Assembly: GCA_951406725.2 (NCBI GenBank)
Contig: OX597831.1
Location: 36,828,001-36,892,000 of the forward strand
Origin: Octopus vulgaris
Taxonomy: Eukaryota
Reading direction: 5' to 3'
Length of the DNA: 64,000 nt
Under the pieces are notes generated by a model that saw only the letters and a list, made by a program, of their open reading frames with translations, searched no databases and was not told the origin of the DNA. The translations under genes were made by a program, and so were the position numbers. Below, piece after piece: positions 7,531-33,949 of this stretch (positions are counted from its first letter, which is position 1; every line of letters starts with the position of its first letter).

Positions 7531-10500
7531 ACCCAAAAATCTTTCGAAAGTTTTCACCGAAAATTTTACCCAAAAATCTTTTGAAAGTTTTCACCGAAAA
7601 TTTTACCCAAAAATTTTTCGAAAATTTTCACCAAATATTATCACCAAAAACTTTTCGAAAATTTTCATGGAAAACTTTCCCCAAATTTTTTTCGAAAATT
7701 TTCACCGAAAATTTTCCCCGAAAATTTTCCCCAAAAATTTTTCGAAAATTTTAAACAAATTTTTCAAAAATTTTTCAAAAATTTTCATCGAAAATTTTCC
7801 AAAAAAAGTTTTTTGAAAATTTTCACCGAAAATTTTACCCAAAAATTTTTCGAAAATTTTCACCGAAAATTTTACCCAAAAATTTTCAAAAATTTTCACG
7901 AAAATTTTACCCAAAAATTTTTCGAAATTTTCACCAAACATTTTCACCAAAAACTTTTCCAAAATTTTCATGGAAGACTTTCCCCAAAAACTTTTCCAAA
8001 ATTTTCACTGAAAAGTTTACCCAAAAATTTTTCCAAAAATTTTCACCGAAAATTTTCCTAAAAATTTTTTGAAAATTTTTGCCGAAGATTCTCCCCAATT
8101 TTTGGAAAATTTACCGAAAATTTTCACCGAAAATTTTCCCCAAAAGTTTTCCCGAAAATTTTCCCCAAAGATTTTTCGAAAATTTTCACCGAAAATTTGA
8201 ACCAAAAATTTTACGAAAATTTTCCCCAAAAACTTTTCGAAAACTTTTCCCAAGATTGTCAAAAATTTTCATTGAAAATTTTACCCAAAAATTTTTCGAA
8301 AATTTTCCGCAAAAGTTTTTCGAAAATTTTACACAAAAATTGTTCGATGACTTTCACTGAAAATTTTACAAAAAAAATTTTCCGAAAATTCCCATTAAAA
8401 GTTTTCTCCAAAAACTCATAGGAAATTTTCACGGAAAACATTCCCCAAAAATTTTGCAAGGTTTTCACCAAAAATTTTTCGAAAACTTTCAACGAAAATT
8501 TTCCAAAATTTTCACTGAAAATTTTACCCGAAAACTTTTCGAAAATTTTCCCCAAAAATTTTTCCAAAATTTTCATCAAAAATTTTCCCCAAAAGTTTTT
8601 CGTAAATTTTCACCGAAAATTTTACCCAAAAATTTTTCCAAAATTTTCACCAAAAATTTTTCGAAAATTTTACACAAAAATTCTTCGATGACTTTCACTG
8701 AAAATTTTACAAAAAAAATTTTCCGAAAATTCTCCAAAAACTTTTCGAAAACTTTCACGGAAATTTTCAAAAAGTTTTCACAGAAAATTTTCACCAAAAA
8801 TTTTTTCGTAAACTTTACCCAAAAATCTTTCGAAAGTTTTCACCGAAAATTTTACCCAAAAATTTTACGAAAATTTTCACCAAATATTATCACCAAAAAC
8901 TTTTCGAAAATTTTCATGGAAAACTTTCCCCAAAAATTTTTCGAAAATTTTCACCGAAAATTTTCCCCACTTTTTTCCCGAAAATTTTCCCCAAAAATTT
9001 TCCAAAATTTTCACCGAAAATTTTACCCGAAAACTTTTCGAAAAGTTTCCGCAAAAAGTTTTCGAAAATTTTAAACAAAAATTTTTCAAAAATTTTCGCC
9101 GATAATTTTCCCCGAAAATTTTCCCCAAAAATTTTTCCAAAATTTTCATCGAAAATTTTCCCAAAATTTTTCCAAAATTTTCATCGAAAATTTTCCCCAA
9201 AAGATTTTTGAAAATTTTCACCGAAAATTTTACCCAAAAATTTTTCGAAAATTTTCACTGAAAATTTTCCCAAAAACTTTTCGAATATTTTCACCAAAAA
9301 TTTTTCGAAAACTTTACCCAAAAATCTTTCGAAAGTTTTCACCGAAAATTTTACCCAAAAATTTTTCGAAAATTTTCAACGAAAATTTTCCAAAATTTTC
9401 ACTGAAAATTTTACCCGAAAACTTTTCGAAAATTTTCCCCAAAAATTTTTCCAAAATTTTCATCAAAAATTTTCCCCAAAAGTTTTTCGAAAATTTTCAC
9501 CGAAAATTTTACCCAAAAATTTTTCCAAAATTTTCACCAAAAATTTTTCGAAAATTTTACACAAAAATTCTTCGATGACTTTCACTGAAAATTTTACAAA
9601 AAAATTTTCCGAAAATTCTCCAAAAACTTTTCGAAAATTTTCACGGAAAACATTCCCCAAAAATTTTCAAAAGTTTTCACAGAAAATTTTCACCAAAAAT
9701 TTTTTCGTAAATATTTCACCAAAAATCTTTCGAAAATTTTCACCGAAAATTTTACCCAAAAAATTTTACGAAAATTTTCACCGAAAATTTTGAACCAAAA
9801 ATTTTCCCGAAAATTTTCCCCAAAATTTTTCGAAAATTTTCCCAAGATTGTCAAAAATTTTCATTGAAAATTTTACCCAAAAATTTTTCGAAAATTTTCC
9901 GCAAAAGTTTTCGAAAATTTTACACAAAAATTGTTCGATGACTTTCACTGAAAATTTTACAAAAAAAATTTTCCGAAAATTTTCCCATTAAAAGTTTTCT
10001 CCAAAATTTTCAGGAAATTTTCACGGAAAATTTTCCCCAAAAATTTTGCAAAATTTTCACAATTTTCCCCAAAAATTTTTCGAAAATTTTCAACGAAAAT
10101 TTTCCAAAATTTTCACTGAAAATTTTACCCGAAAATTTTCGAAAATTTTCCCAGAAAATTTTTCCAAAATTTTCATCAAAAATTTTCCCCAAAATTTTTC
10201 GTAAATTTTCACCGAAAATTTTACCCAAAAATTTTTCCAAAATTTTCACCAAAAATTTTTCGAAAATTTTACACAAAAATTCTTCGATGACTTTCACTGA
10301 AAATTTTACAAAAAAAATTTTCCGAAAATTCTCCAAAAACTTTTCGAAAATTTTCACGGAAATTTTCAAAAGTTTTCACAGAAAATTTTCACCAAAAATT
10401 TTTCGAAAACTTTACCCAAAAATCTTTCGAAAGTTTTCACCGAAAATTTTACCCAAAAATTTTACGAAAATTTTCACCAAATATTATCACCAAAAACTTT

Positions 10501-12610
10501 TCGAAAATTTTCATGGAAAACTTTCCCCAAAAATTTTTCGAAAATTTTCACCGAAAATTTTTTTCCCAAAATTTTTTTCCCGAAAATTTTCCCCAAAAAT
10601 TTTCCAAAGTTTTCACCGAAAATTTTACCCGAAAACTTTTCGAAAAGTTTCCGCAAAAAGTTTCCGAAAATTTTAAACAAAAATTTTTCAAAAAAATTTT
10701 CGCCGATAATTTTCCCCGAAAATTTTCCCCAAAAATTTTTCCAAAATTTTCATCGAAAATTTTCCCCAAAATTTTTCCAAAATTTTCATCGAAAATTTTA
10801 CCCAAAAATTTTTGAAAATTTTCACCGAAAATTTTACCACAAAAATTTTTCGAAAATTTTCACTGAAAATTTTCCCAAAAAACTTTTCGAAATTTTCACC
10901 AAAAATTTTTCGAAAACTTTACCCAAAATCTTTCGAAAGTTTTCACCGAAAATTTTACTCCAAAAATTTTTCGAAAATTTTCAACGAAAATTTTCCAAAA
11001 TTTTCACTGAAAATTTTACCCGAAAACTTTTGAAAATTTCCTTTCCAAAAATTTTTCCAAAATTTTCATCAAAAATTTTCCCCAAAAAGTTTTTCGAAAA
11101 TTTTCACCGAAAATTTTACCCAAAAATTTTCCGAAAATTTTCACCAAAAATTTTTCGAAAATTTTACACAAAAATTCTTCGATGACTTTCACTGAAAATT
11201 TTACAAAAAAATTTTCCGAAAATTCTCCAAAAACTTTTCGAAAATTTTCACGGAAAACATTCAAAAATTTTCAAAAGTTTTCACAGAAAATTTTCACCAA
11301 AAATTTTTTCGTAAACTTTACCCAAAAATTTTCAAAGTTTTCACCGAAAATTTTACCCAAAAATTTTACGAAAATTTTCACCTAATATTATCACCAAAAA
11401 CTTTTCGAAAATTTTCATGGAAAATTTTCCCCAAAAATTTTGAAAATTTTCACCCGAAAATTTTCCCCAAAATTTTCAAAATTTTCCCGAAAATTTTACC
11501 GAAAATTTTCAAAATCCGAAAATTTTACCCAAAAATTTTTCGAAAATTTTCCCCGAGCTCTTTTGATTTTAAAAAGATTTTCGAATATTTTCACCGAAAA
11601 TTTTACCCAAAAATTTTTCAAAATTTTCCCGAAAATTTTCCAAAAATATTCATGAAAAAAAATTTAGGTGGCTTTGCTGCTTTCTGTGTATAAAGCGTGA
11701 ATTCTGGTTAGTTTATAGTCAAGATTTTCACGATACAATTTATTTACCTTGATACATTTTCAACTTTATTCGCATATTCGTTATATTTTTCGAAAATTTT
11801 CACCAAAATTTCCCAAAATTTTATTTTCACCGAAAATTTTACCCGAAAATTTCACGAAAATTTTCCCAAAAATTTTTCCAAAATTTTCACCGAAAATTTT
11901 CCCCAAAAAGAAAATTTTTTTTCGAAAATTTTCACCAATTTTACCCAAAAATTTGTCGAAAATTTTCCGCAAAAATTTTTCGAAAATTTTAACAAAAATT
12001 CTTCGATGACTTTCACTGAAAATTTTACAAAAAAATTTTCCGAAAATTCTCCAAAAACTTTTTCGAAAATTTTCACGGAAATTTTCAAAAGTTTTCACAG
12101 AAAATTTTCACCAAAAATTTTTCGAAAACTTTACCCAAAAATCTTTCGAAAGTTTTCACCGAAAATTTTACCCAAAAATTTTACGAAAATTTTCACCAAA
12201 TATTATCACCAAAAACTTTTCGAAAATTTTCATGGAAAACTTTCCCCAAAAACTTTTTCGAAAATTTTCACCGATAATTTTACCCAAAAATTGGTCGAAA
12301 ATTTTCCCCGAGCTAAAAATAGATGTTATGGCTGAAAATAGATTTTTAGGTGGCTGTTGCTGCTGCTTTCTGTCTATAGAGTGAATTCTGGTTTAGTATT
12401 ACAGTCAAGATGCCTCACCATCCCCGATACACCAGATTCTGCTTTACACTTAACTATGACGATATCGACTTTAACGGTTCCAAAATCACAATTATGGCTT
12501 TCTCCAAAAACTTTTCGAAAATTTTCAAGGGAAACTTTCCTCAAAAATTTTCCAAAGTTTTCACCGAAAATTTTCCGCGAAAATTTTCACAAAAATATTC
12601 GAAAAATCAC
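7528..12610. repeat. ~5 kb phased A4T4 satellite with ~1.6 kb higher-order repeat
   Basis: AAAATTTT blocks separated by 2-5 mostly C/CG bases. Marker TTCGATGACTTTCACTG occurs at 8343, 8684, 9571, 9934, 10283, 11178 and 12002 (three-step offsets 1591, 1599, 1607). Confidence 0.95.
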
Positions 12611-14083
12611 AAGGCCAGCGGTGCCAAAATCACAAAGTATGGAAGGCCAGCTGTGCCAAAATCAAAAAGTACGGAAGGCCAGCTGTGCCAAAATCAAAAG
12701 TATGGAAGGCCAGCGGTACCAAAATCAAAAAGTATGGAAGACCAGCGGTGCCAAAATCAAAAAGTATGGAAGGCCAGCGGTGCCAAAATCAAAAAGTATG
12801 GAAGGCCAGCGGTGCCAAAAATCAAAAAGTATGGAAGGCCAGCGGTGCCAAAATCAAAAAGATTTTCGAAAATTTTCCTAACAAACTTTAAATGCAAACC
12901 TAGCCTTTTCTATGGTCTGCCAAAAATTCATAAAAGCCAAATTATAAATGAAACCATTAAAAAATCACCAAAGACATACATACACACACCTAATCCGGGG
13001 GACCTAAAACTACGACCCATTGTAGCTGGCCCAACCTGTGAAACACACAGACTAAGTCTATTTATGGACATCCTCCTGAATCCCTTCCTTAAACATATCG
13101 AGAGCCATATCAGAGATGACTTAGATATGTTAAACCACCTCCCAAAAAAAGCCAAGGAAGAAACAATCCTGGTTTCATTTGATGTAGTTAACTTATATAC
13201 CAGTATACCTCATAATTATGGACTAGAGGCAATACAGTTCTGGCTGGACCAATTTCCGGAAGAAATTCCAAAAAGGATCAGTAAAGAATTCATTACTAAA
13301 TCAATTGAATTCATCCTACATAATAACCACTTCATGTCTGACAATACATTTTACCGTCAAAAATCCGGAATTGCTATGGGTACAAGGGCAGCACCAGTCA
13401 TTGTGAAACTAACAATGGGCTACATGGAAATAATCATTTACCAGGAATCTTTATCAATCTTTGGAAACCCCCTTTCTCAATACATAAAAGAGGATTGGAA
13501 ACGATTCTTAGACGATTGTTTTATACTCTGGAATGAAAACACAGATAAACTCCTAAAATTTAAAAACCTATTGAACAGCATAAACCCAAATATACAGTTC
13601 ACAATGGAATACAACCAAAAGGAGCTCACGTTCTTGGATATACTAATTAAAAAAGTTAACCTTAAAATAGAAACAGACATTTTTTACAAAGCCACAGACG
13701 CCAAACAATACCTTCTTTTTAATTCATGCCACCCAAGACACACTAAAACAAACATCCCCTTCAACCTTGCAAGAAGGATATGCACAATAGTGTCAGAACA
13801 AAATACCAGGAACTTGAGACTGCAAGAACTCAAAAACACCCTAATTGACAGACATTACCCAGCTCAACTCATAGAGGATGGGATCAGACGTGCAACAGAA
13901 ATCAACATAGAAACTTTAGGAAAAGTTCAACACAACAACACACCTTCCCCGAAAATACTACCTTACATATCTACATACAACCCCAGAAACAAAGAAGCCT
14001 TCACCATCATCACCCAGAATTTACCAATACTTCATAAGGACCCCAAATTAAAGGAAATTCTAAACATACACCAAATCATTTAA
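12410..14083 (+). CDS. Penelope-like element reverse transcriptase. RT homology starts at ~12880; the N-terminal ~155 aa are repeat-derived; the ORF ends at a premature stop.
   Basis: Motifs FYGLPKIHK, LRPIV, LVSFDVVNLYTSIP, YRQKSGIAMGTRAAP, WKRFLDDCF, IQFTME, FLDI and the thumb motif FNSCHP are characteristic of PLE RTs. Confidence 0.85.
   Translation: MPHHPRYTRFCFTLNYDDIDFNGSKITIMAFSKNFSKIFKGNFPQKFSKVFTENFPRKFSQKYSKNHKASGAKITKYGRPAVPKSKSTEGQLCQNQKYGRPAVPKSKSMEDQRCQNQKVWKASGAKIKKYGRPAVPKIKKYGRPAVPKSKRFSKIFLTNFKCKPSLFYGLPKIHKSQIINETIKKSPKTYIHTPNPGDLKLRPIVAGPTCETHRLSLFMDILLNPFLKHIESHIRDDLDMLNHLPKKAKEETILVSFDVVNLYTSIPHNYGLEAIQFWLDQFPEEIPKRISKEFITKSIEFILHNNHFMSDNTFYRQKSGIAMGTRAAPVIVKLTMGYMEIIIYQESLSIFGNPLSQYIKEDWKRFLDDCFILWNENTDKLLKFKNLLNSINPNIQFTMEYNQKELTFLDILIKKVNLKIETDIFYKATDAKQYLLFNSCHPRHTKTNIPFNLARRICTIVSEQNTRNLRLQELKNTLIDRHYPAQLIEDGIRRATEINIETLGKVQHNNTPSPKILPYISTYNPRNKEAFTIITQNLPILHKDPKLKEILNIHQII
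12611..12861 (+). repeat. 32-bp minisatellite, ~7.8 copies
   Basis: AAGGCCAGCGGTGCCAAAATCAAAAAGTATGG starting at 12611, 12643, 12675, 12706, 12738, 12770, 12802 and 12835; no spacers. Confidence 0.95.
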
Positions 14084-14553
14084 AGCTACAAACAACCTAA
14101 ATCACTTAAAAAGATTCTCACAAAGGCAAAATTGTTTTCTGAAATTACGGATGCAAAAGTAAAAAAATATGGTAGATCGACCTGTGCAACATGTCCAAAC
14201 CTGCTAGAAGGATCAGAATTTCTCTTTAAAGAGGGACAGAAATTTAAGATCAAATCTAACTTTACTTGTGCCTCTGAAAACATAATTTATGTCATAAAAT
14301 GCTCGGGCTGCCACCAAGACTACGTGGGATCCACGGGACTATCACTCAGATGTAGATGCACACTGCATCGACAACAGATTGCATTCCCAGAATACAGAAT
14401 GATACCTTTTAGTGAGCACATTGAGAAATGCGCAAAGCAACTACTACCACAATTTCAATCTTTCCATTTTACCAATGTGCTATCGGATCATCAACACAAA
14501 TTAGACTAAACAAGGAAACATTCTTCATTGAAAAGTACAAGCCAAGACTTAAC
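14084..14553 (+). pseudogene. PLE zinc-finger-like linker and GIY-YIG endonuclease, disabled
   Basis: In frame with the RT after TAA 14081-14083: SYKQPKSLKKIL...FTCASENIIYVIKCSGCHQDYVGST...LHRQQI. A frameshift near 14456 shifts to IFPFYQ...KETFFIEKYKPRLN. Confidence 0.88.
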
Positions 14554-18018: not shown

Positions 18019-18645
18019 CATCGTTTAAAGCGGACGTTAAACGATGATGATGATGATGATATATATATATATATGTGTATAAATGCATGCACGCGCATGT
18101 ATATATATTTCTAGATATACGCATTCAGGTTTACATATCTATCAACCAGCATACATATATGCATGTATATGTGTATGTGCGTATGTATATATCGGTTTTA
18201 AATCATGTGAGCATCTAGCTTGCATTCATTATCTCATGGCAACATTAACCATTATATAACCATTCTACAACCAGATATATTTTGATAAATCATTGAAATA
18301 CTGGCAAAAAACAAAGGAGTATTTCTGTGTTAACTTCATCTTTTCCACTATTTTTCACAATACATACATACATACATACATGCATATGTATATACATACA
18401 TACATGCACACGTATACACTCACACATGCAGAGAATCATAAATTGGAAAGCCTTTCCAATTTATAATTCTTTTTGTTATTGGGGGCTTAACATTTTCCCT
18501 CATTCCCCTGACTTCAGTTAATGTGTATCAATGAAAGTTTGTGGTTGTAGTTGTCTTCTAAGCATAATCTGGCTACTACCTGTTGTCTGTAGTACCCTTA
18601 ATTATATATATATATAGGGAGATGTACTTGCATAGCAAGTGACTT

Positions 18646-18827
18646 GATTCACTTTAACATTTAAATTTAATTTGTCAAAATATTTTCGTCGCTTTGAAAC
18701 CGCGACCTGTTCACTGACAAAGCTTCATGAAAAGGTCGTGCAGCACAAAGCTTTGTCACTGAACATGTTGCGGTTTCAAAGTGATGAAAATATTTTGACA
18801 ACTTAAATTTAAATGTTGGAGTGAATC
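18646..18827. repeat. Foldback with ~80-bp arms and ~22-nt loop
   Basis: GATTCACTTTAACATTTAAATTT...GACAAAGCTT pairs with AAGCTTTGTC...AAATTTAAATGTTGGAGTGAATC. Confidence 0.9.
18672..18720 (-). ncRNA. Minimal type I hammerhead ribozyme, G3-C8 core variant
   Basis: Minus strand: UUGUCA-GUGAACA-G-GUCGC-GGUUUCAAA-GCGAC-GAAA-AUAU-U-U-UGACAA. Perfect 6-bp stem I, 5-bp stem II, palindromic AAUAUU stem III, NUH triplet UUU. Confidence 0.7.
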
Positions 18828-18896
18828 TAACGGTTTTGTGTGTTTCTTAAATGGCTTATAAACACCTTCCACGCTGCAATTGTTTATATATATATA

Positions 18897-19065
18897 TAAA
18901 AATGGAACAAAAACGCACTTGAGTACAATAAAACATTCAGACAGATAGACGATACAAGGCAGACAAGAGAAACAACAATTAGAAGGACAGGCAAAAAACG
19001 ACTGGTCATTCATAGCCTTCTTTCCTCAGTCAAGTCCCAGAAGTCACAACCATTTTGGGCACCGA
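18897..19065 (-). mobile_element. ~180-bp dispersed repeat, second copy
   Basis: Homologous to 1258-1440 and 44400-44570. Confidence 0.6.
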
Positions 19066-33650: not shown

Positions 33651-33770
33651 ATTTATATATATATATATATGTATATATATGAATATATATATTCAAAATG
33701 TGACCGCGTGTGTACCGTTGGTGATTTTTTTTCCTCTGTCTTCCCTTCTCTGGATCTTTCCTTCTCCTAT

Positions 33771-33805
33771 GTTTCCGATGAAGAGCTCCGCTCGAAACAT
33801 TAAAC
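33771..33805 (+). ncRNA. Minimal hammerhead-like motif in a short PLE-type tail (33690-33903), decayed
   Basis: GTTT-CCGATGA-A-GAGC-TCC-GCTC-GAAA-CA-T-T-AAAC. Stems I and II are intact; U4>C, and a likely CG>CA change in an AACGTT palindrome. Confidence 0.55.
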
Positions 33806-33949
33806 CCTCCTTCTTTCTTTCTTTCCTGAGCGTCCAATAATACTATATTTGTTCCACGTCCTCGCATTGTTGTGTTTTTTTGTGCTTTCTTGTTTGGATT
33901 AACTATATATATATATATATATATATATAGATAGATAGATATGTATATA

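Follow-up and report, generated by a model that had tools for sequence, protein, structure and literature searches.

A short foldback lies between (TA)n runs in the genome of Octopus vulgaris, and its arms recall hammerhead ribozymes, one of them with G3-C8 in place of C3-G8 in the core. This locus raises the question of which element left the foldback, and whether the swapped pair is a natural state of a ribozyme family or the decay of a single copy. The window considered here is the whole stretch of DNA analysed, 64,000 nucleotides of contig OX597831.1, and all window positions are counted from its first letter.

The foldback, placed by the sequence-only reading at 18646-18827, is real. Its inverted repeat consists of 80 nt arms (18646-18725 and 18748-18827) that are 90% complementary. 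The flanking (TA)n runs were confirmed in the sequence as (TA)7 on both sides (18603-18616 on the left and 18885-18898 on the right) and represent the target site, while the insertion itself spans 18617-18885 and thus extends beyond the limits first given. BLAST of a family copy against the window returned 18739-18885(+), 18729-18646(-) and 18648-18618(-), so the whole insertion is made of two pLTR stubs of a Penelope-like element (PLE) fused 5' to 5'. The left arm (18617-18729, minus strand; BLAST and alignment) bears the tail, that is, the far 3' end of the family. It has an internal deletion of about 83 nt (family positions 91 to 173) with a 3-nt microhomology, and the start codon was therefore lost from this arm. 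The right arm (18739-18885, plus strand; BLAST) is devoid of the tail and ends 57 nt before the far end, at the second 3' end of the family. It retains at 18851-18883 on the plus strand a start codon and 11 first codons in all, the putative N-terminus of the parent ORF according to peptide alignment with the ORF of a sister element. The interarm junction, read from the sequence as the gap between the BLAST pieces, occupies 18730-18738; together with its flanks (18728-18738) it resembles a captured bit of the motif's own core and stem II, with one mismatch.

An intact minimal type I hammerhead motif is found in the left arm at 18672-18720 on the minus strand by sequence, descriptor and fold, with G3 at 18714 and C8 at 18709. 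Read from 18720 to 18672, it comprises stem I UUGUCA/UGACAA, the core GUGAACA, an extra G, stem II GUCGC/GCGAC, then GAA, the palindromic AAUAUU and U17, with the cut site predicted between 18678 and 18677. The stems, core, extra G and palindrome are exactly those described earlier. In RNAfold, stems I and II form the minimum-energy structure (-14.5 kcal/mol, z -1.78), and 11 of 200 shuffled sequences fold equally well. Across the 64 kb the strict descriptor matches the left arm alone. When the window was block-shuffled 15 times, a single match arose overall, and it was not G3-C8.

The right arm contains a decayed copy of the motif (18753-18801, plus strand; sequence and fold) with C3, C8 and an extra U; its stem II has undergone three CpG-type changes and holds three G·U pairs. 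It does not fold as a hammerhead in RNAfold (z -0.18), lacks the full set of minimal type I features and is predicted to be inactive. The C at position 3 and the CpG-type decay of stem II had been noted correctly, but C3·C8 is a mismatch and not a canonical core. The idea that each arm encodes a working hammerhead is not supported, since the right one is decayed and the two lie on opposite strands, so that any transcript across the window copy would be a single hairpin of -111 to -126 kcal/mol. With such a read-through hairpin, one sense motif per strand, a broken right motif and a left arm without the start codon, the window copy is probably inert.

The repeat is highly abundant. The genome searched, 2.8 Gb in 227 contigs, gave 3,285 DNA candidates and 15,156 peptide candidates. 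An exact 22-mer spanning stem I, core and stem II was matched genome-wide by 5,534 G3-C8, 324 non-C8 and 166 non-G3 sequences, and reversed 22-mer controls gave 0 matches. Among 309 arms in the fetched loci, many of which were fetched through similarity to the family, 280 have G3-C8, 14 G3·G8, one C3·C8 and none C3-G8. The G3-C8 swap is thus genuine and constitutes the family consensus, which keeps both GTGAACA and the stems. The swap is not confined to one arm, as had been supposed: both arms of the family normally carry G3-C8, and the C3 of the right arm, seen in one arm of the 309, is private decay. In contigs drawn from four public runs, the family was seen in those labelled organisms A, B and D; no variant at positions 3 or 8 was listed there at 3%, the cover being thin.

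The left arm and the family share the features of the minimal type I hammerhead: stems I and II, G12-A13-A14, A15.1-U16.1, H17, a palindromic helix III and the extra nucleotide. Positions 3 and 8 form a Watson-Crick pair in the family, while the literal C3/G8 core is absent. Rfam hammerhead models had no match at E up to 10 in the window arm and in the young subfamily, where canonical minimal motifs may also go unmatched; in the Rfam scan of the 64-kb window all of the matches listed (150 of 332) were microsatellite-driven miRNA. As it departs from the literal C3/G8 consensus and has no Rfam match, the motif is classed as a variant rather than an ordinary member. A separate arrangement of the family was observed at L201 (G000:C2:171240500-171247500), where copies with A at position 8 recur every 3,455 bp in a larger tandem unit; no ORF of at least 130 aa was listed between these tandem copies.

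The parent of the repeat was reached from its upstream side. Five copies extended upstream of the usual 5' boundary, and one of them reached the C-terminus of a GIY-YIG endonuclease, scored above the cut-off by Pfam PF01541. The reverse transcriptase (RT) piece of the parent had no Pfam match and was called from the YVDD motif and a 55% match to the sister ORF. A search with this piece gave copies with open frames of up to 1025 aa that include YVDD, a CxxxCxxC linker and the endonuclease. In 20 loci chosen by RT similarity alone, the G3-C8 motif was located 969-1083 nt downstream, on the same strand, in 16 of 17 parent-type ORF ends, and the sole exception sits near the edge of its locus. The PLE origin proposed earlier is supported by this ORF, to which the motif is thereby linked, and the head-to-head arrangement is likewise supported. 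The 205-nt unit terminates copies that have, about 1 kb upstream, an ORF with RT, Zn-linker and GIY-YIG. Such a union of RT and endonuclease in a single ORF linked to the repeat is a feature of EN+ PLEs. By its CxxxCxxC linker the parent would be of the Neptune/Nematis type as defined in PMC8557442.

Searches in the opposite direction gave no copy that continues past the repeat as far as the ORF, and no full-length parent with a 5' repeat joined to the ORF was found. No copy entered the ORF among the tails continuing into non-TA sequence (30 of 33 matches), nor among the 150 peptide matches in which long frames were sought (30 inspected at that stage). The GIY-YIG search yielded other PLE families, the parent being absent from 30 loci and 20 extended loci. 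At L171:1-1146 a 5'-truncated family copy and the GIY-YIG end of another PLE are fused in frame. The start of the ORF was approached through the sister element. The final 90 nt of the unit form an open frame, the 30 codons of which align to residues 6-30 of the sister 1312-aa ORF (10 of 25 identical, E 0.004). The two elements share the Arg codon at which they end. We infer that the family frame is the N-terminus of the parent ORF, the link being made via the sister. A pLTR ending inside the start of the ORF is seen directly in the sister, and in the family it is suggested by this peptide homology.

The ends of the copies indicate how the foldback arises. They were measured in 167 copies picked by the 3' tail only, which include 28 of 30 tail-search loci (two segmental duplicates were dropped) and 139 other loci taken from the 150 peptide matches, six being unfetched. 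An inverted arm is joined within 60 nt in 115 copies, and 52 of the 167 have no inverted arm. Inverted arms end mostly (88 of 115) at +81 to +93 from the cut site, the end used by the right arm in the window, while tail arms end at about +147; the full tail is present in two inverted arms. At the 5' side, 170 of 282 arms end 43-64 nt upstream of the cut site, a spread that partly reflects leader differences between subfamilies, and only six extend further. Longer copies contain a TA-rich box about 30 nt upstream of this boundary, and the boundary itself presumably resembles an initiator. From the sharp 5' ends, the TA-rich box and the likeness to an initiator, the 5' boundary is read as the transcription start. 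Sequence upstream of the cut site is included in 226 of 282 arms, which means that their RNA templates were uncut. The insertions of the family lie in AT-rich or (TA)n DNA.

The most probable explanation, which we hold with fair but not full confidence, is that the foldback is a pair of stubs of an EN+ PLE, produced at a two-strand nick in (TA)n DNA by copying uncut RNA twice, and that the G3-C8 motif would act, and cut weakly, in the parent transcript only. Reverse transcription would start at two sites 57 nt apart within the ORF start, giving one arm with the tail and one without it, after the scheme of PMC11167929. Each cDNA would then reach the 5' end of the RNA, a start site that precedes the cut site by about 60 nt, and joining of the two would give the foldback. 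In the parent RNA the motif would dimerise via the palindromic helix III, probably aided by the protein of the element; the G3-C8 pair would preserve the core geometry at a lower rate, and a cut would strip the first 60 nt and the cap from the parent RNA.

Two 3' ends and inverted arms match the two RT start sites and two-strand nicking of the anole PLE and the anatomy described in PMC8557442. The anole element PAc (Poseidon of Anolis carolinensis; Frangieh et al. 2024, PMC11167929) likewise nicks both strands in AT-rich DNA, starts reverse transcription at two sites within the beginning of its ORF, which set the limits of the tail, and uses an uncut RNA template. The octopus family differs from it in the tail (57 nt against 30-40), in the hammerhead lying entirely upstream of the start codon and in a longer ORF with a Zn-linker. 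Neptune/Nematis EN+ PLEs (Craig et al. 2021, PMC8557442) share the inverted 5'-truncated neighbour copy, the one-sided tail, the (TA)n targets, the C-terminal GIY-YIG and a CX2-5CxxC linker; no core swap is given for them in the accessible text of that paper. The foldback behaves as the terminal-repeat stub of a PLE that bears a minimal type I hammerhead, and in itself it is an ordinary by-product of PLE insertion and nothing new.

The history of the swap was followed in two relatives. The sister PLE (55% protein identity over 815 aa) has an intact 1312-aa ORF. Downstream of 15 of 16 of its ORF ends there is a motif that shows C3-G8, has C at position 9 and contains stem II GUCAC/GUGAC, the palindromic AGAACU and U17. 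Its stem geometry is the same as in the family, while the palindromic helix III is different; having C at position 9 instead of A, the sister core is not fully canonical. Young near-identical sister copies are found at L228-L232 (e.g. L230:2763-6698), with a donor-like sequence about 25 nt upstream of the hammerhead. An older lineage possesses G3-C8, C at position 7, a 6-bp stem II, a variable loop and, in the majority, a 4-nt palindrome. Its pattern accounted for 78 of 96 matches (hand count) against one in the control. The 23 copies examined, chosen for G3 and C8 by the search pattern itself, have a median DNA identity of about 70% to the main family. U17 is kept in 19 of them, and the first four positions of stem I are paired in 19, 11, 20 and 10 of the 23, the outer positions being poorly kept. 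Since the sister has C3-G8 at the same place and the older lineage has G3-C8, the swap is a double change and is not recent.

Several results bear on whether the motif cuts. A Watson-Crick pair restored at homologous positions and kept across lineages speaks for activity, and the family hammerhead is probably active, though likely weakly, in the parent element. The C3G/G8C double mutant partly restores cleavage in the anole PLE hammerhead, which requires its protein (PMC11167929), and metazoan minimal hammerheads are weak in vitro (PMC4209133). In the octopus motif the helix III duplex amounts to only -0.2 kcal/mol, and cofolding yields two monomers instead of a dimer. At the cut site eight 5' ends were counted where 4.1 would be expected (p 0.057); microhomology in stem I accounts for the three that fall there exactly.

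The strongest competing view accepts the same PLE origin and takes the motif to be vestigial: the swap was fixed once cleavage ceased to matter, and the sequence was retained for another job, such as promoter-downstream sequence, protein binding or RNA folding. The mainly uncut insertion templates described above agree with this. In the anole element, moreover, catalytic mutants had no effect on insertion in vitro and no reads ended at the cut site (PMC11167929), and Naiad PLEs thrive without canonical hammerheads (PMC8557442). The contrast in conservation within the family is also weak. Changes that mark subfamilies (at least 8% of 172 arms) fall on five of nine loop II positions and on zero non-CpG positions of the core or stems; yet zero non-CpG changes in about 40 nt of core and stems, as against seven in about 140 nt downstream, are not significant when about two are expected. 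Two-sided covariation was found for no base pair within the main family. However, it is unlikely that two lineages with about 30% divergence would both have a Watson-Crick pair re-formed by a double transversion unless the 3-8 pair were under selection, and across the lineages loop II, N7 and the length of helix III changed while the palindrome, GAAA and U17 were kept. Loss of function before the swap is for these reasons unlikely, though it carries more weight than any other alternative.

The sharp 5' boundary, taken above as the transcription start, could also be a 3' splice site, with the short copies derived from RNA that was spliced or caught midway through splicing. Just before the boundary come a pentamer resembling a branch point, a run of pyrimidines and YAG, the young subfamily keeps the YAG, and the boundary junction was matched 958 times. 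Contigs of public runs, in which repeats were skipped, showed no joint spliced to the boundary and so carry no weight either way. In D. virilis the intron ends at helix I, and introns in the 5' UTR of PLEs are known (PMC2377424; PMC4209133). Yet the short copies have no shared first-exon sequence before the boundary, the modal 5' ends retain the AG (positions -60 to -58), which splicing would remove, and a TA-rich box lies about 30 nt upstream. We consider a splice origin of the boundary to be unlikely, and the transcription start remains the preferred reading of it.

One kind of change stands out at position 8. C8-to-G was found in eight of 172 arms, compared with a mean of 0.6 for C/G transversions elsewhere, one loop site reaching nine. 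It makes up 42 of the first 100 non-C8 matches, and G3-to-C makes up 10 of the first 100 non-G3 matches (eye count). The change occurs on several subfamily backgrounds and is confined to one arm at six of seven two-arm loci; examples are L057, L081, L292 and L298. Being mostly present in one arm only and on several backgrounds, it probably arises at insertion, and as no such excess is seen at other core positions, its cause is more probably a hot spot of the RT than the escape of templates from cleavage. General selection for dead ribozymes was rejected, C8G alone being enriched and not changes at G5, A6, A13 or A14. It is improbable that the motif is an active, selected, slow ribozyme 60 nt behind the start site which decaps part of its own RNA, with C8G recording the templates that escaped the cut. 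If this were true, the thousands of insertions would represent a natural activity assay of the ribozyme.

A MITE or DNA foldback with chance hammerhead resemblance would fit the inverted arms flanked by TA runs and the missing Rfam match, but it can practically be dismissed: the 3' ends are unequal and the 5' truncation is variable, an inverted arm is missing from 52 of the 167 copies, and the long copies lead on to an ORF with RT and GIY-YIG, a parent linkage that refutes it. Equal terminal inverted repeats with no RT parent, as expected of a MITE, were not what was found. A non-LTR retrozyme, which consists of head-to-tail monomers each with a hammerhead (bioRxiv 10.64898/2026.07.22.740005), was rejected as well, the window copy being an inverted pair.

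How far the motif is new can be judged against published hammerheads. The minimal type I hammerheads that metazoan PLEs carry in their pLTRs, as described by Cervera and de la Pena (2014, PMC4209133), have the same place in the pLTR, an extra nucleotide between 9 and 10.1, G10.1-C11.1, a small palindromic helix III, the NUH triplet and dispersed solo copies. That paper also describes a U3-A8 variant and pairs of motifs that lie on opposite strands at a distance of 100-700 bp. Unlike these, the octopus family has the core GUGAACA with G3-C8, and its extra nucleotide is G where their consensus is H; G3 is absent from the readable motifs of the Figure S3 alignment of that paper. Covariation of positions 3 and 8 is shared with the natural core variants of Perreault et al. 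(2011, PMC3088659), in the available text of which U3-A8 alone is reported. In PMC3884650, as far as its accessible text goes, G3-C8 appears only as an engineered variant, and the swap that is a laboratory mutant in PAc (PMC11167929) is the natural state in the octopus family. Natural G3-C8 was not found in the literature searched, including the available parts of PMC8495972, PMC6765202, PMC6155905 and PMC2377424; it may occur in Lünse et al. 2017 (PMC5785218), in figures or in subscription papers. Thus G3-C8 as a natural state appears to be undescribed and appears to be the only novelty of the motif. The foldback layout, minimal hammerhead, extra nucleotide, palindromic helix III, natural U3-A8 and partly active C3G/G8C mutant are already published.

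The earlier suggestion of unrecognised core diversity in this genome holds for G3-C8 in that sense, but not for U3-A8 and the opposite-strand pairs, which had been published (PMC3088659, PMC4209133). Three different 3-8 pairings do occur in the window, as had been proposed. Besides G3-C8, there are U3-A8-type motifs at about 14727(+) and 7050(-), which were read by eye, have a 2-bp stem II and do not pass the strict descriptors, and, at about 33775(+), a copy of a C3-G8 family in which U4 has decayed to C. When 340 fetched loci (1.06 Mb) were scanned with a descriptor, C3-G8, U3-A8 and G3-C8 families appeared and no A3-U8 family did; two shuffles gave no match of any kind. A loose pattern for unrelated G3-C8 families had 1,184 matches against 1,403 in the control and was discarded as noise, the older relatives excepted; in nine of 12 fetched candidates nothing pointed to membership of the older lineage.

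Should the motif cut, it would be a natural instance of a 3-8 pairing that in the literature searched occurs solely as a rescue mutant made in the laboratory. Search patterns that demand C3-G8 or U3-A8 would in that case miss entire families, which here amounts to over 5,500 exact copies that Rfam leaves unmatched. The swapped lineage and its C3-G8 sister form a matched pair for asking about the role of the hammerhead in PLE life cycles.

The window contains other PLE sequences. Remnants of another RT and GIY-YIG PLE at 12875-14461(+) and 7532-7278(-) show 58% and 47% identity to the 781-aa ORF of L121 (G000:C16:20835000-20841000). Each remnant is followed by one of the U3-A8 hammerhead-like motifs, and the two diverge outward from the satellite between them. 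This satellite (about 7600-12600) is a large degenerate tandem array of T/A tracts and the source of many false descriptor matches. The C3-G8 hammerhead-bearing repeat copy with the U4C decay occupies 33735-33889(+) and is 91% identical to L236. L121 itself is a two-ORF PLE (about 360 aa and 781 aa) with U3-A8 hammerheads in both terminal repeats, and in it a pyrimidine-rich stretch and AG overlap the core, like a splice acceptor inside the ribozyme.
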